Positions 638-58,174 of a stretch of 64,000 nucleotides of DNA are shown piece after piece. The notes under the pieces were generated by a model. It did no database searches and was not told the DNA's origin. It worked only from the letters and a program-made list of their open reading frames with translations. This DNA is from a virus (taxonomy: Duplodnaviria > Heunggongvirae > Uroviricota > Caudoviricetes). The position numbers and the translations under genes are program-made. Positions within the stretch are counted from its first letter, which is position 1. Every line of letters begins with the position of its first letter. Location: IMG/VR virus record IMGVR_UViG_3300033049_000033, positions 1 to 64,000 of that record, one strand, 5' to 3'.

Positions 638-1018
638 ATGCTCAAAAAGTTTAAAAGTAGGAGAGGAAAATTGGAGTTAGGTCTTAAGGGTGAGTTACCC
701 ATTGAGTACCCAAACATAGAAAATATATTGTCATTGGTGGATAGTTATGAAAAAGATAACTTGGATACCATTGACAAATTAAAAAGAGATAAGAGTCTGG
801 AACTAAAGAGGATAAATGGAGCGCTTAAACAAACAATAGATGCCCACGGTCCTATTACAAAAGTTCTTATTGGTAGTAGTTCTAAGCGCATATATGGAGC
901 ATTATTAGCATCGCAACCCAAACCTTCAAATAATATGCCCAAATATTCGATAAAATCAATATTACTGGGGTTTACGTTGGCCTCGGCTTTATTCCTCAGT
1001 ATTTGTCTTTTTTTATAA
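638..1018 (+). CDS. hypothetical protein
   Basis: 126 aa ORF after a short gap from the HD gene; hydrophobic C-terminus; no motif recognised. Confidence 0.35.
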   Translation: MLKKFKSRRGKLELGLKGELPIEYPNIENILSLVDSYEKDNLDTIDKLKRDKSLELKRINGALKQTIDAHGPITKVLIGSSSKRIYGALLASQPKPSNNMPKYSIKSILLGFTLASALFLSICLFL

Positions 1019-1775
1019 ATCTATTATAATAACTGCATAATGGTTGGAGATTCGTATGATGATTTAATCGGATTATATCTTCCTCATTCAGTGCTGAACT
1101 GCTAGGTACAATATGGTCAATATCCCATGTCTTATTAGGTTCTATGATACCGTCTTTTGGATTACCGTAATTATCCCAATTCATCCAATCCTCCCATTGC
1201 GATTCAATATGTAATTTGAATTCATCAAACGAACACCCAAGTATGTCTTGCGTTTTAGACTTCTTACCATATTGTCTAAAGGTTTGTTTAACCAACGTTC
1301 TTACATTATGTCCTAATTTATATAGTGGGTCGGTCTTCGTTTTTTCCTTATGAAGTAGATTTCGCCTATCCTTATATGACTCTCTATACTTTTGTATTTT
1401 TTCTCTATTCTCAACATAATACTTACGGTGCCTATTTCGTTCTTTTTCTATATTGTTTTTTCGATACCCTGAACCATACTCCCTAATCTTATCCTGATTT
1501 TTTTTTCGATACTCCGAACCATATACCTCCATATACACTGTCTGTCGTTCCTTATTTTTCGGGTTATCTCTATATCGTTTATCAGATGCTATTTTACCAC
1601 CTTTGAACCTCCTACCAGACTCCCCCATTTCAACTCCATGTTTTTTAAGAAGTCGATTTATTACCCCTTTACTGACGTTGAATTGTTCACCTATCGCAGG
1701 GGTACCTAACATATCTACCTCATATAAATGGATAATAGTTCCTATTTCTGCACTACTAAATGTGTATTTACTCAT
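996..1775 (-). CDS. HNH homing endonuclease (paralog 1 of 6)
   Basis: C-terminal WDIDHIVPSSSA...NLQPLCSYYNRFIK HNH motif; central GCSFDEFKLHIESQWEDWMNWDNYG block; N-terminal HTH-like segment and basic tandem repeats (Y-x-x-N-K-E-x-I); minus strand among + genes. Confidence 0.8.
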   Translation of the reverse strand: MSKYTFSSAEIGTIIHLYEVDMLGTPAIGEQFNVSKGVINRLLKKHGVEMGESGRRFKGGKIASDKRYRDNPKNKERQTVYMEVYGSEYRKKNQDKIREYGSGYRKNNIEKERNRHRKYYVENREKIQKYRESYKDRRNLLHKEKTKTDPLYKLGHNVRTLVKQTFRQYGKKSKTQDILGCSFDEFKLHIESQWEDWMNWDNYGNPKDGIIEPNKTWDIDHIVPSSSALNEEDIIRLNHHTNLQPLCSYYNRFIKKDKY

Positions 1776-2282: not shown

Positions 2283-3182
2283 ATGAAGAACAAACCTTTT
2301 AAAATCGCCAGTGGTCGTATCACTGACAGAAATACCCAGTCATTAACGAAGTATCTAAATGAATTATCCGCAATTGACCCATTCACCCCTGAAGAGGAAT
2401 ATGAATGTGGAGTTAAAGCGGCTGCTGGTGACCAAATAGCTAGAAATGAATTGGTTACGAGAAACCTGCGATTTGTGGTTAGTGTAGCTAAAAGTTACGT
2501 TAGAGAGGGGTCACCATTGGGAGACCTTATCAATGAGGGGAATGAGGGTATGACAATTGCAGCAAACAGATATGACCCAACAACGGGCTATAAATTCATT
2601 TCTTACGCTATTTTTTGGATTCGTAGAAACATCATGAACTACTTAGGTGATAACGGACAAATCATCCGTATTCCTAACAACCGTAGAGACGGCATTTCAA
2701 AACTTAAAAGAGAGTTGAGTGATATAGAACAAGTGTTAGGGCGTACTGCAACCTACATGGATTTGATTGATGATAATACCTCTAATGAGCGCATCCAAGA
2801 GTTGGAGTTGTTGACACAAATGGCAGGTCTTAACGTATCCTCAATGGACAAACCATTGGACGTAGAAGGTGCAACAGGTTCTATGTACGAACTTATTGCC
2901 GATGGAACCTTTGGTGATACTGACAAGTTGGTAATTGATAACAGCATGAGTAGAATATTAGAATCAGTACTTAGCCTATTATTACCGATTGAAAGAGCAG
3001 TTATTGAGGCGCGATATGGCCTTAATGGTGGAGCACGACAAACTCTAAAGGAATGTAGTGAGTCTCCTAAAATAAAATCAGATGGTAAAAACATATCCAG
3101 AGAACGGGTTAGACAAATCGAAGCTAAAGCTTTGACAATTCTAAAGGGTCTTATAACTGAACGTGCAATTGAATTAGTATAG
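2283..3182 (+). CDS. RNA polymerase sigma-70 family sigma factor
   Basis: 299 aa; region 2 (NEGNEGMTIAANRYDPTTGYKFISYAIFWIRRNIMNYL) and region 4.2 (ISRERVRQIEAKAL) motifs. Confidence 0.85.
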   Translation: MKNKPFKIASGRITDRNTQSLTKYLNELSAIDPFTPEEEYECGVKAAAGDQIARNELVTRNLRFVVSVAKSYVREGSPLGDLINEGNEGMTIAANRYDPTTGYKFISYAIFWIRRNIMNYLGDNGQIIRIPNNRRDGISKLKRELSDIEQVLGRTATYMDLIDDNTSNERIQELELLTQMAGLNVSSMDKPLDVEGATGSMYELIADGTFGDTDKLVIDNSMSRILESVLSLLLPIERAVIEARYGLNGGARQTLKECSESPKIKSDGKNISRERVRQIEAKALTILKGLITERAIELV

Positions 3183-3372: not shown

Positions 3373-3412
3373 TTTTGTCATGTTGTTCGATATTTATATT
3401 AAACGATAACTG

Positions 3413-3787
3413 ATGAGTAAAGATTATATACGACAAGTACTTAGAGAGGGCTTAGTGGGAACTATGGGATTAGGTGAGGCTGGAGGTTCCCAAGCACCAG
3501 CAGGTCAACATAGAGACCATCATGAAGACAAAGCTACCGAAGGGGACTATGAGCGTCTTAGGGGTATCTTAAACAATCCTATTATCAACCATGCAGGGGT
3601 TATCGAACAGTTGTGGGGTACAAAGGATGCCACCAAACGAAGTCTATTCCGTAAGAAATTAGGTAAAGAAACTAATGATGAAGGTGGAGTATATGAATTT
3701 GATAAAGAAGAAATGGCTAAATTATTCTCAATTTTAGATAACTTGAAGAATGCCATGTCATCTTCATTAGATAGAGGACAACGTTAA
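3413..3787 (+). CDS. hypothetical protein
   Basis: 124 aa ORF in + chain; no motif. Confidence 0.45.
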   Translation: MSKDYIRQVLREGLVGTMGLGEAGGSQAPAGQHRDHHEDKATEGDYERLRGILNNPIINHAGVIEQLWGTKDATKRSLFRKKLGKETNDEGGVYEFDKEEMAKLFSILDNLKNAMSSSLDRGQR

Positions 3788-4305: not shown

Positions 4306-4565
4306 GAGTAGTACAGACCAACGTTAATCAACACATTATGGTTAAGCTAACTCCTAAAGGGATTGAGCATTGGATGGAGGATGTAAACTCGAATCTACCA
4401 ACACACCTCAAACTTACACCAGATATCGTTAAAAATAAAATGGACGACAAAGGGTTCCACACTTTCCAGATTTGGGAGTTTATGGAGATATTCGGAGCAA
4501 AAAGTGGTATGGGAATGCCGACACTATTTGAAACCGAGGTCTTGATAGAAACATCAGTACAATGA
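4302..4565 (+). CDS. hypothetical protein
   Basis: about 87 aa; start at MRVVQ assumed because the upstream ATG overlaps the previous gene; stop overlaps next start (ATGA). Confidence 0.4.
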   Translation: MRVVQTNVNQHIMVKLTPKGIEHWMEDVNSNLPTHLKLTPDIVKNKMDDKGFHTFQIWEFMEIFGAKSGMGMPTLFETEVLIETSVQ

Positions 4566-5224
4566 AAGAGATTAAAGAAACATGTTATAAGGGTACTAGG
4601 ATTCTAATCGGAAACGAGAAGAGAGTAATAACTAATAAGCTAATTGTCAGTATGTTGGCTGCTGGTTTTACCGAGATTTCTATGCCTGTTATCCAACTAT
4701 CTGATACTTTTGATGGTAAGGTGGGCACTGAGAATAACAACCTTATGTATAAGTTTACAGATAGAGGTAATAGAGACCTGTGTTTGGCTCCAGAATATAC
4801 GGCTGTTATACAAGAGTTGGCTAAGACTAAATTGAAGTTTAATAACAATGAAAGGTTATTCTACGTCCAAGAGTGTTTCAGAGGTGAGAAGCCACAAGCT
4901 GGTAGATACAGACAATTCACTCAAGTAGGAGTAGAGGTATTGAATCCTACTGACGACCCTTTAAATGATTTGACTTGGTTAGAGAAATTGGCTAATTTAG
5001 CTGAAGGCATGGTATGGACTTGTCTTCCAGAAGATATAGATTTCACGGTGAACGTGAACATGAATGTGACAAGAGGTTTGGATTATTATAAAGACGGTAA
5101 GGGATTCGAAATTACCATTGATGAGCTTGGCAGTTCCAAGCAAGTAGTTGGAGGAGGAGAGTATGACGGTGGTGTCGGTTTCGCATTGGGACTGGATAGA
5201 ATTTTATCGTTACGCAGAATGTAG
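4562..5224 (+). CDS. minimal histidyl-tRNA synthetase-like class II aaRS catalytic core (HisZ/HisRS paralog)
   Basis: 220 aa; motif 1-like LAPEYTA, motif 2 ECFRGEKPQAGRYRQFTQVGVEV, motif 3 region RGLDYY...GGGEYDGGVGFALGLDRI; no insertion or anticodon-binding domain; motif 3 Arg replaced by Glu. Confidence 0.75.
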   Translation: MKEIKETCYKGTRILIGNEKRVITNKLIVSMLAAGFTEISMPVIQLSDTFDGKVGTENNNLMYKFTDRGNRDLCLAPEYTAVIQELAKTKLKFNNNERLFYVQECFRGEKPQAGRYRQFTQVGVEVLNPTDDPLNDLTWLEKLANLAEGMVWTCLPEDIDFTVNVNMNVTRGLDYYKDGKGFEITIDELGSSKQVVGGGEYDGGVGFALGLDRILSLRRM

Positions 5225-5278: not shown

Positions 5279-5986
5279 ATGAAACGAGATTTAACAAATG
5301 TAAAGGGATATATCTATAAGCTTACCAGCCCTAATGGTAAGACATACATAGGACAAACAGTTAATAAGAAACAGCGTAAGTATCACTATAATTCGGGAGA
5401 CTTTAAACAACAGACAAAGTTATGGAATAGTGTTAGTAAGTATAATTGGAATCCAGCCGAAACTTATGAAATAATTGAAGAATGTTTATGTGGAGTAGAT
5501 AAAGAGATATTAAATAAACGTGAAACGTATTGGATTGACCATTATAATAGTTTTAAATCTGGGTTAAATTGTAATGTTGGGGGTGATGGGAATTTAGGTA
5601 ACCAGCATAGTGCCGAATCTAAACGTAAAATGAGTGAGGCTAAAATTGGGGTTAAACACCCAGATTGGCGTAACGAGCAAAAAAGAGAATACACTAAAGG
5701 GCGTAAGCATACAGATGAGGCAAAACTTAGAATGAGTGAAGCTAAGATAGCTAACATGACAGATGATGTTAAATCTAAGATTAGTGAAGGGTTGATGGGT
5801 AACCAAAATGGTATAGGTAATTCTGGTAGCCCTAAAAAGGTAGTATGCTTAACCAACAATAAAATATATAATAGTATTAAGGAAGCGGCAAACGAATTGG
5901 GATTACACTCGTCTAATATTATTGCAACTTGTAAAGGTAAACAAAAATATACTGGTGGATATAAATTTAAGTATAATGAAGGATAA
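5279..5986 (+). CDS. GIY-YIG homing endonuclease (I-TevI/Seg-like) with NUMOD3 repeats
   Basis: GYIYKLTSPNGKTYIGQT...RKYHY GIY-YIG motif; repeated HSAESKRKMSEAKIG / HTDEAKLRMSEAKIAN (NUMOD3-like); C-terminal HTH-like KVVCLTNNKIYNSIKEAANELG. Confidence 0.85.
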   Translation: MKRDLTNVKGYIYKLTSPNGKTYIGQTVNKKQRKYHYNSGDFKQQTKLWNSVSKYNWNPAETYEIIEECLCGVDKEILNKRETYWIDHYNSFKSGLNCNVGGDGNLGNQHSAESKRKMSEAKIGVKHPDWRNEQKREYTKGRKHTDEAKLRMSEAKIANMTDDVKSKISEGLMGNQNGIGNSGSPKKVVCLTNNKIYNSIKEAANELGLHSSNIIATCKGKQKYTGGYKFKYNEG

Positions 5987-6725
5987 GAAGAAAATAGTCG
6001 TATTCAGTGGGGCTGGATTGGATAGAGAGTCAGGCGTGAAGACATTTAGAGATAACGAAGATTCTCTGTGGGAGAATTATAATATAGACGATGTGTGTAC
6101 TCCTAACGGATGGAGAAAAGACCCACAATTAGTAACAGACTTCTATAATGAGCGTAGAATGGAATTGGCTAATGTCGAACCTAACGATGCTCATATCGCA
6201 TTAGCCAACTTAGAACGTATTGCCGATGTAGTACATATTACACAAAATGTGACCGATTTATTAGAACGAGGTGGGTCTACATTTGTTCATCACTTACATG
6301 GTGAATTAGGTAAGGTACGAAGCGTAGCTGACGCTAACGAGATATATGATTACGGCACCAAACCTGTTCATTTAGAGGAGGATAGGGCTAAACATAACGC
6401 TAGGCTAAGGCCACACATTGTTTGGTTTGGAGAAATGCCAGACGTAAAGTCGGTTAAGAAAGCATATAAAGTTATATATGAATGCGATGTATTATTGATT
6501 GTAGGTACAAGCCTACAAATTAGTTACACGTTAGATATGTTGATGCAAGCATCGTTAACATGTGAAGTCTATTTCATTGACCCTAACCCAGTTAAATACC
6601 TCGATAGATATACGGATTTAGGTATGATGCCTAATATTACATACATTAAAAAGAATGCTACTGATGGTGTTACAGAAATTGTTAACCGCTTATTAGAACA
6701 AGATGAGTCAGAAGAAGGCAATTAA
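5976..6725 (+). CDS. Sir2-family (sirtuin-like) NAD-dependent protein, zinc-ribbon-less
   Basis: 249 aa from ATG 5976 (overlaps GIY-YIG stop); FSGAGLDRESGV (GAGxS), TQNVTDLLERGG...HHLHG (catalytic His), LLIVGTSLQI; no Cys in the region where sirtuins carry the Zn module. Confidence 0.8.
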   Translation: MKDKKKIVVFSGAGLDRESGVKTFRDNEDSLWENYNIDDVCTPNGWRKDPQLVTDFYNERRMELANVEPNDAHIALANLERIADVVHITQNVTDLLERGGSTFVHHLHGELGKVRSVADANEIYDYGTKPVHLEEDRAKHNARLRPHIVWFGEMPDVKSVKKAYKVIYECDVLLIVGTSLQISYTLDMLMQASLTCEVYFIDPNPVKYLDRYTDLGMMPNITYIKKNATDGVTEIVNRLLEQDESEEGN

Positions 6726-7457: not shown

Positions 7458-8888
7458 ATGAAAATTAAACAGATTCTGGACGAGATAGCCAATGAGCCGT
7501 CAACTAATAACAAAATGACAATCCTCAGAAAGTATGAGGAAAATAACACACTTAAGAGAGTCCTGTACATGGCCAAATCAAAGAGGCTAAAGTACTATAT
7601 CAAACAAATACCAGAATATATTATACCAGCACTATATCCAAAGATGACACTGGAAGAAGCACTGGAAGAATTAACTCCATTATTAGAACGTACTGTTACT
7701 GGACATGAGGCCATTAAGCATTTAGCAACCATTTTAGGAAGTCTTGAGTCTGATGATGCATACGTTATTGAACGTATCATTGATAGGAGCCTTAAAATTG
7801 ACATGGGCACCTCCAACATCAACAAAGTATTTCCAGCACTAATCGAGAAGACCCCATATATGGGAGCTAAGTCTTTTGATGAGAAACTTGTGCGTAAATT
7901 ATTTGACGGAGTTCAAGTTGACCCTAAGTTAGCTGGTAAGCGTGTATATAGTCAAATCAAAGAAGATGGACGTTATGCAAATGCTATCATTCGTGATGGT
8001 GAAGCCGAATTTGAATCTCGTTCTGGTGAGACAACTCATGTTGGTGATGCACTGGTACTGAAAGAGTTAGCCCAATTTGGAGATTGCGTACTTAACGGAG
8101 AACTTACCATTAAAGGACTTGACCGATATACTGCAAATGGTATCATCGCATCAATCGTTGATATTGAAGGTAAGCGTGAGTCTCGTACCGAAACGGAAAC
8201 ATCTAAAAAGCTTACTAAATTTGAAGGAAAGCATGGTAATTACCCTGAGATGTTAAATAGAATTGAGTATGTTATCTGGGATTGGATTCCAGTAAGTGCA
8301 TATTTTGACCAGAAATGTAACATTCCATATAGAGTTAGGTTAGATTGTGTGTTAGAGTTAAAAACTCTTTATAAAATAACTTTAGTTAGAGTGGTAGAGA
8401 CGATACAAGTGGACACTTATGCTGAGGCAATGGAGCACTTTGTAAATGCTTTAGATAGAGGATTGGAAGGTACTATCGTTAAAGCTAGTGATAGTACATG
8501 GAAACACGGTAAACCAAACTGGCAGGTGAAAATGAAACTTGAGTTGACTCTTGACTTCAGAATCATTGGGTTCAACTATGGAAATAAAGGTACTAAAAAT
8601 GAGAACGTTATTTCAACATTACAAGTGGAATCTGAGTGTGGGTTATTGAAGACCAATCCGTCTGGAATGGACGATGAGATGATGCAATTCGTCACCGATA
8701 ACCAAGATACTCTTATGGGTACGGTTGTGGAAATGAGATGCTGTGGGCTATCCCAAGATAGTAAGGGTAATTGGTCAACGATGCACCCATCAGTAGTGAA
8801 GCTACGTGACGATAAAGATGTTTGTGATACTCTGGAGACGGCAAAGCAGGTTGAAGAGATGGCCAAGTCGTTAGAAACAGAAGTATAA
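7458..8888 (+). CDS. ATP-dependent DNA ligase (T4 Lig-like)
   Basis: 476 aa; motif I KEDGRY (SQIKEDGRYANAII), motif IV EGTIVK, motif V WQVKMK; preceded by AT-rich promoter region. Confidence 0.85.
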   Translation: MKIKQILDEIANEPSTNNKMTILRKYEENNTLKRVLYMAKSKRLKYYIKQIPEYIIPALYPKMTLEEALEELTPLLERTVTGHEAIKHLATILGSLESDDAYVIERIIDRSLKIDMGTSNINKVFPALIEKTPYMGAKSFDEKLVRKLFDGVQVDPKLAGKRVYSQIKEDGRYANAIIRDGEAEFESRSGETTHVGDALVLKELAQFGDCVLNGELTIKGLDRYTANGIIASIVDIEGKRESRTETETSKKLTKFEGKHGNYPEMLNRIEYVIWDWIPVSAYFDQKCNIPYRVRLDCVLELKTLYKITLVRVVETIQVDTYAEAMEHFVNALDRGLEGTIVKASDSTWKHGKPNWQVKMKLELTLDFRIIGFNYGNKGTKNENVISTLQVESECGLLKTNPSGMDDEMMQFVTDNQDTLMGTVVEMRCCGLSQDSKGNWSTMHPSVVKLRDDKDVCDTLETAKQVEEMAKSLETEV

Positions 8889-10356: not shown

Positions 10357-10779
10357 ATGAATTTTATACCGTGTTATGTTTTAGCACGGTGTAGCAAATA
10401 TAAAAATATGATAAAAGTAAGTTTTGATTTTGATTCTACATTAAGTAGAAATGATGTGGAGAAATACGCAAAAGAATTGATTGATAGAAATATTGAAGTT
10501 TGGATTTGTACGAGTAGATACTCTCCCGAAAATGCCCCTAACAAAGAGTGGAATGATGATTTGTTTTTGGTTGCTGATAGAGTAGGGATAAAAAGAGAAA
10601 ATATAATATTTACAAACTTTGCTAATAAAAGCGAATACTTAAACAACAAAGGTTTTAAATGGCATATTGATGATGATAATATTGAGTTATCATTTATAAA
10701 AACAGATACAGATTTAACTCCAATATTTTTATTTGGTAATAAGAATTGGAAGAATGATTGTGAAAATGCACTAAAGTAG
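10357..10779 (+). CDS. small HAD-superfamily phosphatase (nucleotidase/Pnkp-phosphatase-like)
   Basis: HAD motif I VSFDFDSTL (DxDxT), motif II WICTSRY, Lys then HIDDD motif IV; likely start at MIKVSF (10408). Confidence 0.5.
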   Translation: MNFIPCYVLARCSKYKNMIKVSFDFDSTLSRNDVEKYAKELIDRNIEVWICTSRYSPENAPNKEWNDDLFLVADRVGIKRENIIFTNFANKSEYLNNKGFKWHIDDDNIELSFIKTDTDLTPIFLFGNKNWKNDCENALK

Positions 10780-14908: not shown

Positions 14909-15157
14909 ATGGAAGAAAGGTTAAACAGATTAACAGAGCAACGGGGTTCAATGAACAAACAAACAACAACCATAGAGATATTAGACTATATAGAAAATCT
15001 GTTAGAGATAGAGAAGGAAGATTTTAGACGAAAACAATTAAAAGCTGTGTCTGATGGAAATCAAGATTATCATGGTGCGATAACATGTGCAACAGCAAGG
15101 TCTGTTACTATGGGAATACTAAGTACAATAATGACTGACACTATTGATTGTAGGTAA
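14909..15157 (+). CDS. hypothetical protein
   Basis: 82 aa ORF between the endonuclease gene and the C-intein gene. Confidence 0.3.
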   Translation: MEERLNRLTEQRGSMNKQTTTIEILDYIENLLEIEKEDFRRKQLKAVSDGNQDYHGAITCATARSVTMGILSTIMTDTIDCR

Positions 15158-16127
15158 TAACGCAATTATGAAAATAATTAAAATTAAAAGAATTAGTAAG
15201 TTGGCGTCAGACTCTAAGAGGTATGATATCGAGACAAAGAATACTCATAATTTCTTTGCTGATGGTATTCTAGTGCATAACTCTTGCATCAACCTATACT
15301 ACGACTGGATTAAGGAAGAGTGGTTCGCTGCTACTACTGGTATGGCAGAGGGTGAGGGTGAAATCAATAACCGTGAGAATACCTCATTCAACGACTTGTT
15401 CTGGGAAACCGTTAGGAACAAGTATGATGAGGATAAGTTCAAGGATAACTTGGAGATTGGTTTCACTTACGTTTTTGAATTGACCACTCCGTATAATATA
15501 GTTGTTGCACCTCATACCGAATCTAGGGTAACCTTATTAACCATCAGGAGTCTGCGTAACTTAAAAGAGTTAGCCTCATCAATATGTTTTGCGGAAGCCT
15601 ATGGTCTAGGGGTACCAATTGTCGAGGAATATGACCTTAATAGCGGTAATGTTGAATTTCTTTTAAGGACATTCGAGAATATGGACGCTTTTTCGGAGGG
15701 TTACGTAGTTGTAGATGATAAATTCAATCGTATTAAGATAAAGAATCCAAAATACGTAGCGATTCACCATTTAAAATCGAAGACATCTTCATATGCAATT
15801 ATGGAGATAATAAAATCTAATGAAGTAGATGAGTTTATCGCCACATTCCCTGAAAGAGAAGTAGAAATCAAAGCACTTAGGGTTAGTTATAATAACCTAA
15901 TTGTGGAATTAGAAGCTTTGTGGGGCATACTTGAAGTTCATAAACCAAAGAATATTACACCAGCAGAACGTAAGAAATTCGCAACCAAAGTTTTCGAGGT
16001 GGTTGATGTCAACGATAAAAAGACGTTCACAGGGTTATATTTCGGTCTTATGGACGGAAAAGTAACTTCAATTGTGGATTATATCCGAAACATGGACAAT
16101 AAAAGACTTTTCGCTTTATTAACTTAA
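15144..16127 (+). CDS. C-part of split intein fused to RNA ligase 1 C-terminal fragment
   Basis: MKIIKIKRISKLASDSKRYDIETKNTHNFFADGILVHN (Npu DnaE IntC-like) ends at 15281; C-extein starts SCINLYYD so the joined junction reads KEDG-S (T4 Rnl1 motif I is KEDGSL); EGYVVVDDKFNRIKIKNPKYV matches Rnl1. Likely start is the Met at 15168. Confidence 0.75.
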   Translation: MIVGNNAIMKIIKIKRISKLASDSKRYDIETKNTHNFFADGILVHNSCINLYYDWIKEEWFAATTGMAEGEGEINNRENTSFNDLFWETVRNKYDEDKFKDNLEIGFTYVFELTTPYNIVVAPHTESRVTLLTIRSLRNLKELASSICFAEAYGLGVPIVEEYDLNSGNVEFLLRTFENMDAFSEGYVVVDDKFNRIKIKNPKYVAIHHLKSKTSSYAIMEIIKSNEVDEFIATFPEREVEIKALRVSYNNLIVELEALWGILEVHKPKNITPAERKKFATKVFEVVDVNDKKTFTGLYFGLMDGKVTSIVDYIRNMDNKRLFALLT

Positions 16128-16816
16128 AGCAATAGGTCTTTCTTATCTACCCTATTAATTTTACTACACAATGGTTGGAGATTGGCGTAATGGTTTAGCG
16201 CTATCACATCATCTTCACTGTTAGCACTAGATATCGGTACAATATGGTCAATATCCCAACCATATCCGTATTCTCCATTATATTTACCATAATTATCCCA
16301 ATTCATCCAATCCTCCAATTGTGATTCAATATGTAATTTGAATTCATCGAATGAGCACCCAAGTATCTTATAAGTCTTAGATTTTTTAGTGTAGCCGAAC
16401 CTACGAATAGCATGACATATCAAACCTCTTGCAGCAACCGACATTCTAAACACTGGGTCAGTTTTAACTTTCTTTCTCACATAATTATTAATGTGTTCCC
16501 TGTTATTAGTGTCCCACACCTTTTTGTCTTCCCTAATTTTAGATTTGTTATTTTCCCTATACTCTTTCTTTTTCGCTAAAATGCGTTTACGATTTGTGAT
16601 ATGGTACTTTTTTACCCGTTTTTCTATATGCTCTTTATTTTCAATCTCATAGACTCTACGTTTCTCCAATAAAGAATCACGATTCTCATTATAAAGTCTT
16701 CTACGTTCGGCATTAATATTGTCCTTGTTTTGTTCGTATAGTTCTTTACGTTCACGATTTATTCGCTCTTTATTGGCTTCGTACCATTCTTTTTTCCTAA
16801 CCTGTTCCTTAGTCAT
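16124..16816 (-). CDS. HNH homing endonuclease (paralog 2)
   Basis: 230 aa; seven 15-aa basic repeats (KEWYEANKERINRER, KELYEQNKDNINAER ...); C-terminal GCSFDEFKLHIESQLEDWMNWDNYG...WDIDHIVPISSA...NLQPLC. Confidence 0.8.
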   Translation of the reverse strand: MTKEQVRKKEWYEANKERINRERKELYEQNKDNINAERRRLYNENRDSLLEKRRVYEIENKEHIEKRVKKYHITNRKRILAKKKEYRENNKSKIREDKKVWDTNNREHINNYVRKKVKTDPVFRMSVAARGLICHAIRRFGYTKKSKTYKILGCSFDEFKLHIESQLEDWMNWDNYGKYNGEYGYGWDIDHIVPISSANSEDDVIALNHYANLQPLCSKINRVDKKDLLL

Positions 16817-42059: not shown

Positions 42060-42268
42060 AAGGGTGATAGGTATCCGTTAAGAACTTTAATTAGCACCTG
42101 TGCCCTATTTCAGGGTAGTGGTAAAAGGTGTTGTTTTGTGGGTAAAAGTGGTAAACGGTGGTATAAGTAGTTGAGATATAGCTTATTATAGTGTTTATTC
42201 TTTTTAGAAATATCACTCTGTAAATAAAATTAGTCACTTTTTATACTTTGTTATTGTATAACATTGTA

Positions 42269-42286
42269 TGTACACATTTGTGTACA
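42269..42286. repeat. 18-bp palindrome TGTACACA-TT-TGTGTACA (copy 1)
   Basis: perfect inverted repeat; also at 42746-42763, 43765-43782 and 56180-56197, degenerate at 43167-43183. Confidence 0.8.
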
Positions 42287-42300
42287 AGGGTGGTATTAGA

Positions 42301-42336
42301 TTTGCATATGTTGATTTTTATTTGTACCTTTGTGTA
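42301..42336 (+). promoter_or_regulatory. promoter TTTGCATATGTTGATTTTTATTTGTACCTTTG (copy 1 of a duplicated promoter)
   Basis: TTTG 42301-42304; TACCTTTG 42325-42332; near-identical copy at 43875-43910. Confidence 0.6.
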
Positions 42337-42744
42337 ATGAAAAAATCAATAATAATAGTGTTCGTAGTGTTATGTATCGTAGTGTCATCTTCAGTTGATA
42401 GTCACTCAGTTGTCAATGATAGGTGGGAGGCACCAAGTAGTGCCGATACACTTAAAAATCCTTATACTAATAGTGCTGAAACATTTATCGTTGGTAAAAA
42501 ATTATTTAAACAAATGTGCGCCATATGTCATGGTAATAGAGGTAGAGGTAATGGAATCGGTGGAATCGGTCTACCGACCAAGCCGACAAATCTCACATCT
42601 AAGGTTATTCAAGGGCAAACCGATGGTGCCATTTTTTGGAAAATATCTGAGGGGAGGATTCCAATTTCACCAATGGCACCATATAAAAGCATATTAAAAG
42701 AAGACCAAAGGTGGGGGTTGGTTAATTATATTAGGACATTATAG
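42337..42744 (+). CDS. c-type cytochrome (class I, c551/c552-like) with signal peptide
   Basis: MKKSIIIVFVVLCIVVSSSVDS signal peptide; CAICH heme-binding CXXCH; distal Met in ISPMAPYK; start at 42337 because the upstream MYTFVY is translation of the palindrome. Confidence 0.8.
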   Translation: MKKSIIIVFVVLCIVVSSSVDSHSVVNDRWEAPSSADTLKNPYTNSAETFIVGKKLFKQMCAICHGNRGRGNGIGGIGLPTKPTNLTSKVIQGQTDGAIFWKISEGRIPISPMAPYKSILKEDQRWGLVNYIRTL

Positions 42745-42777
42745 ATGTACACATTTGTGTACATAGGGATAATTATA

Positions 42778-43164
42778 ATGTCACCTTCGGTGTTTCCTAT
42801 ACTCTTGTGGTGTGGGCTTATATTCATGGTATTGTTTATAGTACAAGCTATGAATATTCAGGTATATGGCAGAATGAGAGGAAATCAATACCTCATTGAT
42901 AATTTGTCTGAACTTAGTGCGGAAATCCGAATGGAGGGTAATAAGAATTGTTTGAGTTATCACTCTGAGCATATAATGTTCGTTAATGAGACTAAGACTT
43001 TGTTTGGGGATTACGTTATATTTGGACAAGCACCCAGTGAACAATATAGTGGCATTGTCTGGCGTGGTAGTACATTGCATTATTTTTTGAAGCGCAAGTT
43101 TGTGGAGCAACGAATACCCACTAAATCCTATGGATATGACAGTAGCATAGTAGAGCCTATGTAG
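42778..43164 (+). CDS. hypothetical membrane-anchored protein
   Basis: 128 aa from MSPSVFPILLWCGLIFMVLFIV; follows palindrome copy 2. Confidence 0.45.
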   Translation: MSPSVFPILLWCGLIFMVLFIVQAMNIQVYGRMRGNQYLIDNLSELSAEIRMEGNKNCLSYHSEHIMFVNETKTLFGDYVIFGQAPSEQYSGIVWRGSTLHYFLKRKFVEQRIPTKSYGYDSSIVEPM

Positions 43165-43180
43165 TATGTACACATTTGTG

Positions 43181-43783
43181 TCATAGCATGTTATTTTGTT
43201 TAATATATCGGTTAGTATAACTACATAATGGTTGTAGGTTAGTGTAATGATTTAGCTTAATAACATCAGAGACATTTTTAGCTGTGGCCAATGGTATTAT
43301 ATGGTCAACATCCCATGCTACGTTAGGCTTATCGGGGGTACCGTTCCAGTTACCTTTATTATTCCAATTCATCCATTCTTCGAATTGTCTTTCTAAATGT
43401 AAGAGTAGCTCTTCGTAAGTACATCCCAATATTAACTCAGTTTTACTTGGTTTAGGTGTACCTATCTGATTAAATGATGCCCAGATGCAGGTTTTAATAT
43501 TTTTTTTTAGTTTATACAATGGGTCTTGAATTATTTTGTTACGTTGATATTCCCTCATATGTTCTTTATTATTAGCCCTCCATGTTCTTCCGTAGTCTAA
43601 TTGTTGTTGTTTATTTTTATCGTACCATTCTTTTTTCTGTTTTGCTATTTTATCAGCATTTCTTTTTAGGTATGCTTTTCTTACTTCTTTATTGTATGCC
43701 ATATTATTTGCGTTTCTTAATAAATATGAGATAATAAGTAGAAGTACACATTTATCATCTTTTATGTACACAAATGTGTACAA
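43181..43783 (-). CDS. HNH homing endonuclease (paralog 3)
   Basis: WDVDHIIPLATA...NLQPLCSYTNRYIK; GCTYEELLLHLERQFEEWMNWNNKG; true start probably MAYNKE at 43702 because the first 27 codons read through the palindrome. Confidence 0.75.
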   Translation of the reverse strand: MYTFVYIKDDKCVLLLIISYLLRNANNMAYNKEVRKAYLKRNADKIAKQKKEWYDKNKQQQLDYGRTWRANNKEHMREYQRNKIIQDPLYKLKKNIKTCIWASFNQIGTPKPSKTELILGCTYEELLLHLERQFEEWMNWNNKGNWNGTPDKPNVAWDVDHIIPLATAKNVSDVIKLNHYTNLQPLCSYTNRYIKQNNML

Positions 43784-43874
43784 AGGTTAATATTCGTGCT
43801 TGATTGTTAATCATACAACTAAGGTAGGTATTATATATTAGACTACCAAACTTTTCTTCTACTATTATATGAAA

Positions 43875-43910
43875 TGAAGTTTTATTTGTGTATGTCGATT
43901 TTTATTTGTA
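43875..43910 (+). promoter_or_regulatory. promoter copy 2 (TTTGTGTATGTCGATTTTTATTTGTACCTTTG)
   Basis: direct repeat of the 42301-42336 promoter; bounds the cytochrome-c/HNH cassette. Confidence 0.55.
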
Positions 43911-43989
43911 CCTTTGTTGGCATGAATGATAACTCAGTAATGGCAATTATAGCTATATGTTTTTTTGGATTATGGCCATATCAATAAGT

Positions 43990-44400
43990 ACACTTCCAAA
44001 AATGGAGGTTGCGAAGGAAAAGACTAAACAATTAGAGTATCAGTGGAAGATTGATTCGGTTGCATCATTAGGTGCAACCCCGTTAGATATATAGGTTTAC
44101 TGTGTGAAAAAGGTAACGGTATAATAGGACGCGGAAAATCGTTATCTGGTATCCTCATATATTATCATGAGTCTTCGGGCAAAAGTGAGGGTATCTGACC
44201 GCAGTTTAATGGATTTGACTGGCGCTCCTGAAGGGAATGCTGGTCTTTTCTATCTGGTAGTTTTAACAACGTGCAGGCGATTTTAGGTCAACGTCCCTCT
44301 GATTTCTCCACCATGCTATCTCAATTGGCGCCTGTCTTAATGACACTTCAAATATAAGGACAATAAATGAGACCACCAAATAAAAATAAAAGTTTTTTAT
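43990..44400 (+). other. about 400-bp ORF-free, hairpin-rich region (candidate structured RNA or leader)
   Basis: no ORF of 60 aa or more on either strand; GGTTGCATCATTAGGTGCAACC hairpin, CTTCGG tetraloop hairpin, higher local GC than the flanks. Confidence 0.3.
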
Positions 44401-44412
44401 TCAGGGTTTTAT

Positions 44413-44622
44413 TTGTATATTTGTAGCATGAAAAAATTCACAACACATTATTTACCTGAAAATGTTCATCTTACTCATATGCGAGAAGATGAACAAGAAT
44501 TCACTAAGGGTAGAACCAGTACATATATGTGGGGATATACTGATGGTAAACGAGATAGAAACTATGACGGGTATTACAAACATGTTGATATAATGAATAT
44601 ACAATATAGATTATTCACTTGA
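44413..44622 (+). CDS. hypothetical protein
   Basis: 69 aa; family-B promoter upstream. Confidence 0.4.
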   Translation: MYICSMKKFTTHYLPENVHLTHMREDEQEFTKGRTSTYMWGYTDGKRDRNYDGYYKHVDIMNIQYRLFT

Positions 44623-49791: not shown

Positions 49792-49823
49792 GACAGGAGT
49801 TTGTCAACTTTAACTTCAGTTTG

Positions 49824-49856
49824 AAAGCCTGCCCTTATGGGTGGGCTTTCTTTTTG
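49824..49856 (+). terminator. rho-independent terminator
   Basis: AAAGCCTGCCC-TTAT-GGGTGGGCTTT then TTTTTG. Confidence 0.65.
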
Positions 49857-53730: not shown

Positions 53731-54414
53731 TTAAAATTCGTCCCTCTTTATATATCTATTGTTATAACTACATAGAGGTTGTTGATTTTTGAAATGGCAT
53801 AGTTCTAATAATTCGTTTTCCGTATTCGCTGTTGATAATGGAATTATATGGTCTAAATCCCAACCATGATTAAGTTCTCCATTATATTTACCATAGTTAT
53901 CCCAATCCATCCAATCCTCCCATTGTGACTCAATATGTAGTTTGAATTCTTCGTAAGTACATCCCAGTATTTTATATGTCGTAGAAGTCTTAGAGTATCC
54001 CTTATCTTTGAGTAATATAGAAATCCTACTTCTTAAATTAATTGTCAGTTTATATAGTGGGTCTTTTGCCACCCTATTAGTACGATAATTTCTATTGTAT
54101 TCTCTAATTTTTTCTCTATTGGAGTCATAGTACTTTTTCTTTGCTAATTTTGTTTGTTCTGGTCGTTCTCTGTTATAAGCTACTAACCTATCTTTATTCT
54201 TTTTTGCGTATTGCTTAGTCGTTTCTTTAATTGTATCTTTATTAATAATACGATATTCTTTGATATAAGCCTTTATATGTTCCTTATTAGCTTCACGCCA
54301 TTTTCTTCTTCTTATTAATCGCGCTTCTTTGGTTTGTTTCATTATGTTGTTTTTATATAAATATGGGGGAACTTGTAAAAATGTTAAGGAATGCATGAAG
54401 ACCTCCAGAAACAA
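53731..54414 (-). CDS. HNH homing endonuclease (paralog 4)
   Basis: basic repeats; GCTYEEFKLHIESQWEDWMDWDNYG...WDLDHIIPLSTA...NQQPLC. Confidence 0.8.
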   Translation of the reverse strand: MFLEVFMHSLTFLQVPPYLYKNNIMKQTKEARLIRRRKWREANKEHIKAYIKEYRIINKDTIKETTKQYAKKNKDRLVAYNRERPEQTKLAKKKYYDSNREKIREYNRNYRTNRVAKDPLYKLTINLRSRISILLKDKGYSKTSTTYKILGCTYEEFKLHIESQWEDWMDWDNYGKYNGELNHGWDLDHIIPLSTANTENELLELCHFKNQQPLCSYNNRYIKRDEF

Positions 54415-56176: not shown

Positions 56177-56204
56177 TTATGTACACAAATGTGTACATAA
56201 GAAC

Positions 56205-56710
56205 TTAAAAGTCAATTTGGTCACATTTTATATACCTATTGACGTATGAGCATAGTGGTTGAAGATTAGTATAATGATTCAGTCTGATTACATCTTCTTC
56301 TGATGTTGCTGACGAAATTGGTATTATATGGTCAATATCCCAACCATAGTTCAGTTCACCATTATATAAGCCCCTATTATCCCAGTTCATCCATGATTCA
56401 AAGTTAGATTCCAAATGTAGCTTAAATTCTTCAATTGTGCAACCTAAAATCTCATATGTAGTAGATTTTTTTGTATAATTATACATTCTAAATATATTAC
56501 CAATCATTCTCTTAACTTTTCTTTTTAGTAAATAAATTGGGTCGTTGAGACTCTTGGTTTTATTCCAAGAAGACCTACTTTTACTAATCTTATTCTATCT
56601 GACATAACAATATCATTAGTTAAACAATATTTTTTATATTGTTTTCTCATTATTTTTTCCATTAAGAATGTGATTCGAACTGGTTCTGCCTTAAATTTCC
56701 GTATATTCAT
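56205..56710 (-). pseudogene. decayed HNH homing endonuclease (paralog 5, frameshifted)
   Basis: 100-aa C-terminal ORF (56205-56507) retains GCTIEEFKLHLESNFESWMNWDNRG...WDIDHIIPISSA...NLQPLC; upstream DPIYLLKRKVKR continues in frame without a start; the repeat-like segment MRKQYKKYC (56525-56710) is in another frame; A/T homopolymer runs. Confidence 0.6.
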
Positions 56711-56796: not shown

Positions 56797-57516
56797 ATGA
56801 AAAAGACAAAGACTCCAACTGGTTATGTGATATATAAAGGGCCATCACAGCTTAACGGTAAAGAAATAGTCGCTATTGTTACCATGAAATCGACTAATAT
56901 AAAAACGGGTAACATGGCTCAATTGTGGATATTATTAGAAGGTCTGAACCCTGTTGAGGCAAGCCAAACCAAAGCTGATGATGCTATTTGTGGTTCGTGT
57001 CAATTTAGGCAATCTTTAGGTGGTGCTTGTTATGTGAATATCGGACAAGCACCAGGTATTATCTTTAGAGCCTATAATAAGGGTAACTATCCATTTGCTC
57101 ACGATTATAGTGTTTTTGAAGGTAAAAGTATGCGATTTGGTGCTTATGGCGACCCTGCGGCAATTCCTTTGGATATTCTAACTAAGTTGAAAGCGGTTGT
57201 TACTAATAACACTTCATACACACACCAATGGAAAAATAACGATAATAAAGCATTGAAAGATGTATCAATGGCAAGTGTTGACAACCTATTAGAAGCTGAA
57301 CAAGCCAAAGAAAGAGGTTATAGGTGGTTCAGGGTAACTAATGACATTGAAACGCTTAGAAGCGATGAAATAATTTGCCCTAACTATACAAGTAACGTAC
57401 AATGCAAAGATTGTAAGTTATGTAGTGGCAATGGTGCGAAGGGTGCAAAGTCTATTGTAATACCAAGTCACGGCTCATGGAAAGGTAGGTTTACGGAAGT
57501 AACAAGTCACGCTTAA
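56797..57516 (+). CDS. hypothetical protein
   Basis: about 239 aa from MKKTKTPTGY after a TATCTTTG promoter; several Cys (CGSCQ, CKDCKLCSG). Confidence 0.45.
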   Translation: MKKTKTPTGYVIYKGPSQLNGKEIVAIVTMKSTNIKTGNMAQLWILLEGLNPVEASQTKADDAICGSCQFRQSLGGACYVNIGQAPGIIFRAYNKGNYPFAHDYSVFEGKSMRFGAYGDPAAIPLDILTKLKAVVTNNTSYTHQWKNNDNKALKDVSMASVDNLLEAEQAKERGYRWFRVTNDIETLRSDEIICPNYTSNVQCKDCKLCSGNGAKGAKSIVIPSHGSWKGRFTEVTSHA

Positions 57517-58174
57517 CGTATCTATTAACATAACTACATAACGGTTGGAGATTGTTGAACTTGTTAAGGTTCAATACTTCTTCTTCTGTTATTGCGGAGC
57601 TACTAGGTATTATGTGGTCAATATCCCATGTCTTATCAGGCTCTACGATACCATCTTTAGGGTTACCATAATTATCCCAATTCATCCAATCCTCCCATTG
57701 TGATTCGATATGTGATTTGAATTCATCGAATGAACACCCCAATATTTCGTGGGCTTTAGATTTTTTAGTATAACCGCCTTCAACTATTTTAAGGCGTATT
57801 AGGCTCCTGACGTTTTTACTTAACCTATATAGTGGGTCGTGTTTCCTTTCATGGTATCGCTTTAAGTTGTATTGTAACTTAGCGGTTTTATTCTCTACAT
57901 ATCGATTGCGGTCTTTTCCCCTCATCCAATCTCGATTATCTTCTCTATATTGCTTATGGTATTCAGTCCTAACGTCTATATTATCTTGATAATACTTAGC
58001 ATTCTGTTGACTTATTCTATCCTTCATACATAATTTACAATGGTATTTGTATCCGTCTGGCGTATTTTTATTCTTATAGAATTCGTTAAGTGGTTTTTCT
58101 ATTTCACATTTACTACATATCTTCATGGTTAGTCTTTTATATAAATAGTGATGAATGTATGAAAGTCTTCCCAC
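57491..58174 (-). CDS. HNH homing endonuclease (paralog 6) with N-terminal zinc ribbon
   Basis: CSKCEIEKP...YHCKLCMKDR; GCSFDEFKSHIESQWEDWMNWDNYG...WDIDHIIPSSSA...NLQPLC. Confidence 0.8.
   Translation of the reverse strand: MGRLSYIHHYLYKRLTMKICSKCEIEKPLNEFYKNKNTPDGYKYHCKLCMKDRISQQNAKYYQDNIDVRTEYHKQYREDNRDWMRGKDRNRYVENKTAKLQYNLKRYHERKHDPLYRLSKNVRSLIRLKIVEGGYTKKSKAHEILGCSFDEFKSHIESQWEDWMNWDNYGNPKDGIVEPDKTWDIDHIIPSSSAITEEEVLNLNKFNNLQPLCSYVNRYVKRDLLLP

Follow-up and report, generated by a model that had tools for sequence, protein, structure and literature searches.

A conserved, oriented 18-bp inverted repeat at gene boundaries of uncultured, probably lytic Bacteroidota phages: a candidate operator-type element not tied to neighbouring HNH genes

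Within a 64,000-nt stretch of a Caudoviricetes genome (IMG/VR record IMGVR_UViG_3300033049_000033, positions 1 to 64,000; hereafter the window), an 18-bp inverted repeat recurs between 42.3 and 43.8 kb and again at 56.2 kb, in part beside genes for HNH-type endonucleases. Does this placement mark a target or a control site of the endonucleases, or does the repeat serve the phage in another way? The motif is not tied to HNH genes: these are found beside it incidentally, as one among several types of mobile or accessory cassette collecting at motif boundaries. The 18–20-bp element itself is tentatively read here as a protein-recognised, operator-type boundary element of accessory cassettes in uncultured, probably lytic Bacteroidota phages. 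These results correct the tempting and mistaken inference that a palindrome beside an HNH gene is its homing site, and describe a short, exactly conserved element with a clear anatomy in phages for which most regulatory DNA is unknown.

The repeat has the form TGTACACA-AA/TT-TGTGTACA, two 8-bp arms around two non-complementary central bases, so that each copy is oriented. Four exact copies are present in the window, starting at 42269, 42746, 43765 and 56180. The AA-centre form, TGTACACAAATGTGTACA, reads on the plus strand at 43765–43782 and 56180–56197, and its reverse complement with the TT centre, TGTACACATTTGTGTACA, at 42269–42286 and 42746–42763. The motif usually extends to a 20-mer, ATGTACACATTTGTGTACAT, with no conserved bases past the flanking A...T, and an inexact copy at 43166–43184 (ATGTACACATTTGTGT-CAT) represents this 20-mer minus one nucleotide of the right arm. 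When up to three mismatches were allowed, five sites were found (42269, 42746, 43167, 43765 and 56180) against 0.15 expected, and none of 100 shuffled sequences reached five; the pattern TGTACA-N(0-30)-TGTACA occurred at 4 sites against 0.26 expected. Isolated half-sites were at chance level (6 outside the five sites, approximately 6 expected), and no additional copy was present in the 4.3 kb of source genome beyond the window. All five copies are intergenic in a window of which approximately 88% is coding. The repeated 18-mer is real and non-random, and exact matching and shuffling bear out an earlier, sequence-only reading of this DNA, which had presented the 18-mer at 56180–56197 as the reverse-complement form of the 42.3–43.8 kb copies and its recurrence as beyond chance. 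That reading had also counted five copies of a perfect palindrome: the count stands for the four exact copies, the fifth being the 20-mer with a deletion, and the centre is not palindromic. The copies are as follows.

42269–42286, plus strand, TT centre: copy 1, exact, within a 277-nt spacer and 14 nt upstream of the -33 box of a promoter designated P1
42746–42763, plus strand, TT centre: copy 2, exact, beginning 1 nt past the stop codon of a cytochrome c gene and ending 14 nt before the ATG of open reading frame (ORF) 42778–43164
43166–43184, plus strand, TT centre: copy 3, inexact, with the 1-nt right-arm deletion, overlapping the stop codon of HNH gene 43181–43702
43765–43782, minus strand, TT on that strand: copy 4, exact, 62 nt upstream of the ATG of the same HNH gene
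56180–56197, minus strand, AA on the plus and TT on the minus strand: copy 5, exact, beginning 3 nt past the stop codon of orf55712 and ending 7 nt before that of an HNH pseudogene

Six HNH/endonuclease VII (EndoVII)-like paralogs were found in the window (996–1775, 16124–16816, 43181–43702, 53731–54414, 56205–56710 and 57491–58174), all on the minus strand in a genome where 127 of 140 crude gene calls lie on the plus strand. They are free-standing genes encoding repetitive basic N-termini. Support for the family assignment is weak to moderate, with Pfam HNH matches of E 0.002–0.009, below cut-off; the product of 43181–43702 matched PHROG 'endonuclease VII' at 2.9e-6 and Pfam HNH at E = 0.0088, below cut-off, and that of 56205–56710 matched Pfam HNH at E = 0.0022, under the curated cut-off. 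The minus-strand ORFs 56205–56507 and 56525–56710 together form one decayed HNH gene, in which the alignable part, at 60–66% identity to intact homologues, is confined to the C-terminal 116 residues. Copies 3 and 4 bracket HNH 43181–43702 and copy 5 abuts the decayed gene. Only two of the six paralogs are therefore motif-adjacent, and the other four have neither a copy nor a remnant half-site nearby. The two adjacent paralogs share 57% identity and each is nearer to non-adjacent paralogs, which rules out a motif-associated clade.

The closest relative, metagenome contig Ga0307989_1001941 (L202/L237; L-numbers are locus labels of fetched viral or bacterial stretches), is approximately 70–80% identical to the window and syntenic with 42.1–56.2 kb, with nucleotide identity near 80% across 45.7–56.2 kb. 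This contig carries the motif 2–3 nt past the stop codon of the orf55712 homologue, exactly the window position, with no HNH gene, and homology to the window stops 13 nt beyond the motif, at the edge of the pseudogene. The presence of the motif at the same spot in this HNH-free relative indicates that it predates the HNH insertion at 56.2 kb. All 16 arm bases of this copy-5 orthologue are kept, the neighbouring bases vary and the centre is flipped (TT for AA). The presence of HNH paralogs varies among near-identical metagenomic relatives (L236/L238 versus L237), indicating that these genes are currently mobile; the insertion site of the HNH gene found in L236/L238 and absent from L237 has no motif, nor does the empty site in L202 corresponding to HNH 53731–54414. 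HNH insertion sites without the motif and motif sites without HNH genes indicate that the two move independently. A self-encoded cleavage target is normally not left intact in an endonuclease-carrying genome. Here, intact motifs lie both beside HNH genes and elsewhere in the same genome, four intact copies coexisting with an intact HNH gene and only copy 3 being altered, which is not the pattern of self-immunity; co-occurrence with the endonuclease family, with the site present at empty alleles, was seen for copy 5 only.

With respect to the HNH genes, the sequence-only reading was correct that the neighbour at 56205–56710 is a decayed HNH gene and that three of the five copies (3, 4 and 5) adjoin HNH genes. 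It had gone on to propose a homing or target site for these endonucleases, or an operator controlling them. Neither form of a specific link to the HNH genes is supported, in view of the four paralogs without a copy, the motif arrays free of HNH genes, the motif-less insertion sites and the HNH-free relative. What survives is the look of a protein-recognition site, with an operator as the better of the two ideas; HNH specificity does not. The comparison it had suggested, with relatives lacking the HNH insertions, yielded the intact site after the orf55712 homologue in L202/L237, and the finding it had named as fatal, a motif abundant elsewhere in the genome or host and unlinked to HNH genes, was largely what related phages displayed, with the motif at HNH-free sites. 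In bacteria the motif is scarce (53 scattered stretches in 596 Gb).

Neither 41–46 kb nor 54–59 kb had a Megablast match among 50,697 phage records, and tblastn with the sigma factor attained 37.5% identity at best, indicating that there is no cultured relative. The exact 18-mer was present in 32 stretches of IMG/VR viral contigs (approximately 50–370 kb), at 1–3 copies per contig, often paired 160–290 bp apart, and many of these contigs encode proteins 40–60% identical to the sigma factor, the HNH family and other ORFs of the window. Across these divergent phages the arms are invariant, while the 4-nt centre is lineage-dependent (ATTT, TTTT, AATT or ATAT) and always A/T. Fixed arms around a variable A/T centre resemble the pattern typical of dimeric operators. 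No compensatory changes (covariation) were found in the arms, and in each of three L232 copies the left arm is degenerate, the right arm kept and pairing lost. In relatives the motif begins 0–18 nt past the upstream stop codon in 9 of 15 clear cases. Of 27 assignable cases, 21 have a centre that points the same way as transcription (co-directional). Both counts rest on crude gene calls at many orthologous sites and so constitute moderate evidence. At least 10 relatives have the motif at a syntenic spot between the sigma-factor gene cluster and a gp3413-like gene, just past a sigma-70-family gene (window homologue 2283–3182) or one small ORF further, and approximately 55–65 nt upstream of a conserved gene of 100–130 aa whose window homologue is 3413–3787. 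The window and its closest relatives have no motif at this spot. None of the orf56740 relatives in viral contigs (≤52% identity) was accompanied by the motif, and an exact-product look-up of orf55712 found nothing on record.

The 42–44 kb region is hyperplastic, with the motif standing between small accessory genes. The order in the window is copy 1, P1, cytochrome c, copy 2, ORF128, copy 3, an inverted HNH gene, copy 4 and P2, and the features between and beside the copies are the following.

42301–42332, plus strand: promoter P1, Bacteroidota sigmaA-type (TTTG-N20-TACCTTTG), with the cytochrome c ATG 5 nt further
42337–42744, plus strand: cytochrome c gene (Pfam PF00034, 2e-10), the cassette between copies 1 and 2
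42778–43164, plus strand: ORFan of 128 aa with a hydrophobic N-terminus (ORF128), the cassette between copies 2 and 3
43181–43702, minus strand: intact HNH/EndoVII-like gene by PHROG and paralog alignment, the cassette bracketed by copies 3 and 4, in opposite orientation to the genes around it
43885–43916, plus strand: promoter P2, a near-duplicate of P1
56205–56710, minus strand: HNH pseudogene, with only the C-terminal part homologous (56226–56573)

The deletion in copy 3 generates the TGA stop codon of the opposite-strand HNH gene, and between copy 4 and the ATG of this gene lie a ATATTTATTA box and an additional half-site, GTACACATTT, at 43744–43753. Downstream of copy 4 come approximately 100 nt, P2 and the remnant of a second small ORF. 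P1 and P2 are identical at 31 of 37 positions (42300–42336 versus 43884–43920) and bracket a 1.54-kb block without counterpart in relatives, the cytochrome c–ORF128–HNH block being absent from both L237 and L230. In L236–L239 the region orthologous to 42.08–42.34 kb contains three direct, co-directional copies approximately 400 nt apart with no HNH gene among them, in the order motif, sigmaA-type promoter, two small membrane ORFs (ORF54 and ORF56 in L237), a second motif 3 nt past the stop codon, 390 nt free of ORFs, a third motif, and promoters with an ORF-free stretch. The copy-1 orthologue in L237, at 592, is the same at 18 of 18 bases between diverged flanks, and the L237 copy that follows the homologous small ORF is precisely absent from the window. 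In L230 a variant (TGATACACATATGTGTACA) is repeated three times without change, and each of these copies overlaps a small ORF at its TGA stop codon. Comparison of the window, L237, L230 and L232 reveals a variable region whose flanking ORFans differ between close relatives. Almost all ORFs neighbouring the motif are ORFans, without a Pfam match; ORF128 matched nothing in Pfam or PHROG, and homologues of ORF128 and cytochrome c, sought in viral contigs as cassettes that might travel with the motif, were not found there. The best named homologues of the cytochrome c are from Flavobacteriales and Cytophagales (approximately 50% identity). It is of class I with a signal-peptide-like N-terminus and is an unusual auxiliary gene for a phage. 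Long, ORF-free and G+C-richer stretches lie at 43783–44430 and, in L237, at 1012–1408 and 1540–1790; in relatives motif copies, a promoter and a terminator delimit such stretches, which match no Rfam family and are candidate non-coding RNAs. The motif marks plug-in points of accessory genes, a host-like cytochrome c and mobile HNH genes among them, and offers a handle for locating variable regions and regulators in metagenomic phage contigs.

In Bacteroidota sigmaA promoters the -7 box spans -12 to -5 (PMC9723704). A scan of the window for TTTG-N18-21-TAnnTTTG gave 21 sites where 1.7 would be expected; 20 lie on the plus strand, before genes, and the 21 share a long consensus. These promoters, together with the cytochrome c homologues, indicate a Bacteroidota host. 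As P1 ends 5 nt before the ATG, the cytochrome c mRNA is probably leaderless. Copy 1 lies 13–14 nt before a -33 box, an arrangement also found in L237, L003 and L006, while copies 2, 3 and 5 have no adjacent promoter. The motif does not itself appear to supply promoter boxes: when its TTTG is treated as the -33 box, or CACATTTG as the -7 box, the spacings to partner boxes are wrong or non-conserved. A 'GATATTTATTA' box that follows the motif in relatives showed no enrichment in the window, with 5 occurrences where 6.2 are expected.

Taken with its exact conservation, this placement points tentatively to the operator-type boundary element introduced above. The motif usually sits just behind a stop codon, before whichever promoter or start codon comes next, and we infer that it is occupied by a dimeric DNA-binding protein, candidates being a host Phd/YefM-type antitoxin complex or a phage helix-turn-helix (HTH) protein such as the gp3413 family. 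Binding may repress or insulate transcription across cassette boundaries. As the copies are identical and nearly symmetric, they are proposed to act also as crossover points at which cassettes (cytochrome c, ORFans and HNH genes) could be gained, lost or inverted, and such exchange at the motif would explain why HNH genes are sometimes found beside it. What the sequences show is the conservation, position and architecture of the element, its independence from HNH genes and the variability of the cassettes; protein binding, the regulatory effect and the part in recombination are proposals.

Among known systems the nearest functional analogue would be the promoter-early stem-loops (PeSLs) of T4-type phages, and the nearest architectural match the operator of the YefM-YoeB toxin-antitoxin (TA) system. 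PeSLs were described by Arbiol et al. 2010 (PMC2839356) and Comeau et al. 2014 (PMC4122927) and have been proposed as recombination linkers that shuffle cassettes in these phages. Both they and the present motif are short conserved intergenic inverted-repeat elements concentrated in variable (hyperplastic) regions, where they flank ORFans and accessory genes. PeSLs are associated with host-type early promoters, and indels between close relatives map to them; here copy 1, as in L237, L003 and L006, has the 'stem-loop upstream of the promoter' layout and copies 2, 3 and 5 do not, and the changes seen at copies are one precise absence and one inverted centre, the readable insertion junction lying in the promoters. 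PeSLs, however, are composites of approximately 100 bp in which the promoter is conserved and the G/C-rich stem-loop is variable and serves as a terminator, whereas here an exact A/T-rich 18–20-mer is conserved, often promoterless and without terminator features, at just 1–5 copies per genome and with a Bacteroidota host (TTTG/TAnnTTTG promoters). The yefM-yoeB operator was experimentally defined as two 5'-TGTACA-3' boxes with a 6-bp gap, 12 bp centre to centre (Kedzierska, Lian & Hayes 2007, PMC1802561), and such pairs occur within 80 bp of yefM starts in diverse genomes, TA operators having diverse spacers (PMC1802561). All four exact window copies read TGTACA-CA(TT/AA)TG-TGTACA, with the boxes at positions 1–6 and 13–18 and the same 6-bp spacer and 12-bp distance, and the exact 18-mer fronts Phd/YefM genes both in several bacterial genomes and on a plasmid of Bacteroides type. 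A location within 80 bp of a start codon is a further likeness. Unlike such operators, the phage copies have no yefM or yoeB nearby or elsewhere in the fetched phage DNA, keep a conserved spacer, and include several promoterless copies between cistrons. The lack of an adjacent TA gene and the inconsistent promoter/terminator composite set the motif apart from the two families.

The repeat also recalls the 'stoperators' of mycobacteriophage L5, reportedly described by Brown et al. in 1997 as repressor-binding copies in short intergenic spacers, orientation-biased, that block elongation and not initiation; they are said to be asymmetric 13-mers present at 20–30 copies in temperate phages with a known repressor. 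Multiple sites in short intergenic spacers and an orientation bias relative to transcription are common to both, but here the site is a palindrome in few copies, the repressor is only putative and no sign of lysogeny was seen. Sites of free-standing HNH and GIY-YIG homing endonucleases are likewise found in spacers, with the endonuclease gene beside a conserved sequence and polymorphic among close relatives; here the site is intact in endonuclease carriers, is missing beside most paralogs and at several insertion sites, and in most of its copies stands without an endonuclease. The Bacteroidota LexA (SOS) box was also rejected, as the motif matches neither the GGA-N5-TCC nor the CTAA-N5-TTAG palindrome reported for it (PMC8565304).

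Scanning 185,579 genomes recovered the exact 18-mer in 53 stretches. In approximately 17 of these, including L169, L135, L167 and L152, the motif directly precedes a Phd/YefM antitoxin gene (PF02604 at 9e-20 in L169 and 3e-7 in L135). Ten of the 17 are copies of one approximately 4.2-kb Bacteroides-type plasmid in which the motif is followed by a sigmaA-type promoter, the antitoxin and a YoeB toxin (PF06769, 8e-11); the remaining bacterial stretches are terminator apexes, an unrelated repeat in one metagenome-assembled genome and single matches. The plasmid, which encodes a relaxase, Rep and Phd/YefM-YoeB (L132, L141, L150, L155, L157, L160, L166, L172, L174 and L181), occurs in assemblies labelled Helicobacter, Geodermatophilus, Bathyarchaeia, Collinsella and others, probably through cross-contamination or mis-binning. 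By our own rough estimate, the 12 box bases at the right spacing would be a coincidence of approximately 1 in 4000 for a random palindrome. No phage copy lies within approximately 80 bp of a Phd/YefM antitoxin start with a YoeB toxin after it, and the phage copies appear to be orphans with respect to TA genes. A scan of viral contigs for ATGTACA-N6-TGTACAT gave matches at about chance level with diverse spacers and was uninformative on spacer preference. That the phage copies are orphan TA operators, lytic Bacteroidota phage DNA being bound by a host antitoxin or antitoxin-toxin complex, is a doubtful proposition. Such a site might serve as a sensor that turns on accessory cassettes once the labile antitoxin vanishes after host shut-off, or as a DNA decoy perturbing TA-based abortive-infection defence; a full-text literature search returned no phage-borne TA-operator decoys. 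If the binder were the host Phd/YefM antitoxin, this would be a new phage–TA interplay at the level of operator DNA.

Several observations weigh against an operator-type element. Profiles built from 10 Phd/YefM and 3 YoeB sequences detected neither family among 19,927 ORFs of the window and fetched phage loci (best E 0.26–0.57), and the same profiles recovered the TA genes beside the 18-mer in bacterial loci and in an unrelated viral locus, L287. The 6-bp spacer is largely fixed (CATTTG) in the phage clade, unlike the diverse spacers of TA operators, and with approximately 10^5 TA operators in the genome collection (our estimate) some exact 18-mer matches are expected, so that the resemblance is confined to the 12 box bases. 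For copies 2 and 3, and for several in relatives, no promoter lies downstream and the description 'operator of a promoter' does not apply. The duplicated promoters, and not the motif, bracket the 1.54-kb window insertion. The co-directional centre, moderate evidence in itself, is not predicted for a symmetric dimer site and is predicted for a function in RNA. Finally, gp3413 as an autoregulator fits poorly with a window lineage that lacks the motif upstream of the gp3413 gene. The location of this candidate is as follows.

3413–3787, plus strand: gp3413, a speculative candidate DNA-binding protein; at least 10 distant relatives have the homologous gene immediately downstream of the motif

The C-terminal 75 residues of the gp3413 family are strongly conserved, and the AlphaFold model is of medium confidence (predicted local distance difference test, pLDDT, 76–82 in the C-terminal part), with nothing significant in a Foldseek search. 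These features weakly suggest that the family could be a small HTH regulator encoded behind its own operator.

The alternatives differ in what they make of the pairing, position and variability of the motif. A function in RNA, where a 7–10-bp hairpin with an AUUU loop at the 3' end of a cistron would attenuate or terminate transcription or protect or process the mRNA, possibly with a hairpin-specific phage protein, is unlikely and yet draws on several lines of evidence: predicted transcript hairpins of -8 to -16 kcal/mol with z-scores down to -6, the position 0–18 nt past stop codons, the co-directional centre, the canonical terminators of L006 and L025 in which the motif forms the apex (flanks extending the stem, with a T-run after), and the call of copy 5 as terminator-like on the minus strand in a terminator scan. 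Most of 55 dereplicated instances, however, extend the stem by no more than 1 bp and have no T-run, L006 and L025 being the exceptions. An intrinsic terminator with a G+C-rich stem and U-tract was rejected for this reason; a canonical terminator is found elsewhere in the window, at 49823–49850. It is also the stem sequence that is conserved and not pairing alone, with no covariation, and variants in L232 and L230 that have lost the left arm or cut the stem to 5 bp are still kept as identical arrays. Copy 5 and its orthologue would present opposite loop sequences at the same site, and copy 1 and the copies in L009 and L021 are far from any upstream gene end. Rfam searches of the whole window, 41.9–44.6 kb and L237 found nothing significant.

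If the motif were purely a recombination linker with no trans-acting factor, recombination between copies and promoters would shuffle cassettes among co-infecting phages and gene conversion would homogenise the copies. The wholly different cassette content between copies in relatives, the copy precisely missing from the window, the inverted centre at an orthologous site, the three identical variant copies of L230, suggestive of concerted evolution, and the opposite centre orientations of copies 3 and 4 around an inverted cassette are all consistent with this. We nevertheless consider it improbable, given that 18–20 bp is short for efficient homologous recombination, that the only insertion with readable junctions is bracketed by 32-nt promoters, which themselves look like recombination linkers, that identical arms in phages with 40–60% protein identity require selection on sequence, and that shuffling does not account for the single copies at a syntenic site beside the sigma gene, seen in at least 10 phages. 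A homing or recognition site, at which an HNH paralog binds or nicks the palindrome and so spreads its own gene beside it, would account for the contact of three of five window copies with HNH genes, for L003, in which copies flank two HNH genes, in one case 4 nt from the stop codon in the manner of copy 5, for the intact site in the HNH-free relative, as in a recipient allele, and for the deletion in the copy abutting the intact HNH gene. It is nonetheless very improbable in view of the four copy-less paralogs, the lack of a clade, the HNH-free arrays, the motif-less insertion and empty sites, the coexistence of intact copies with an intact HNH gene and the commonest conserved location, beside the sigma gene, which is HNH-free in most relatives.

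Further features of the window were recorded. A ATATTTAT(A/T)(A/T)A box lies 10–17 nt upstream of the ATG of the gp3413 family, HNH 996–1775 and HNH 43181–43702 (3388–3400; 1788–1800 and 43718–43728, both on the minus strand) and in many relatives; it may represent a second promoter class, perhaps for a phage sigma factor, and is not statistically enriched in the window. Two phage sigma factors were identified, one of the sigma-70 family with regions 1.2, 2 and 4 (2283–3182) and a second with region 4 upstream of the window (L244 471–1097). Near the sigma genes are genes for IF3, NUDIX, HisRS-like (4562–5224), SIR2 (5922–6725) and ATP-dependent DNA ligase (7458–8888) proteins. A GIY-YIG/NUMOD-like ORF at 5279–5986 on the plus strand, marked by precomputed Pfam annotation on L244, represents a second class of homing endonuclease, and ORF 15144–16127, which abuts HNH 16124–16816, has a weak intein-splicing-domain match (PF14890, E 1e-5, below cut-off). 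No replication origin was indicated by the cumulative GC skew, which is monotonic. Iteron-like repeats, GGTAAAAGTGG and AAATTGTGG, lie beside the motif in the window (42100–42170), L237 (430–470), L009 (8410–8450) and L021 (approximately 10380–10420); they are kept across distant relatives and may represent an origin or another binding site.

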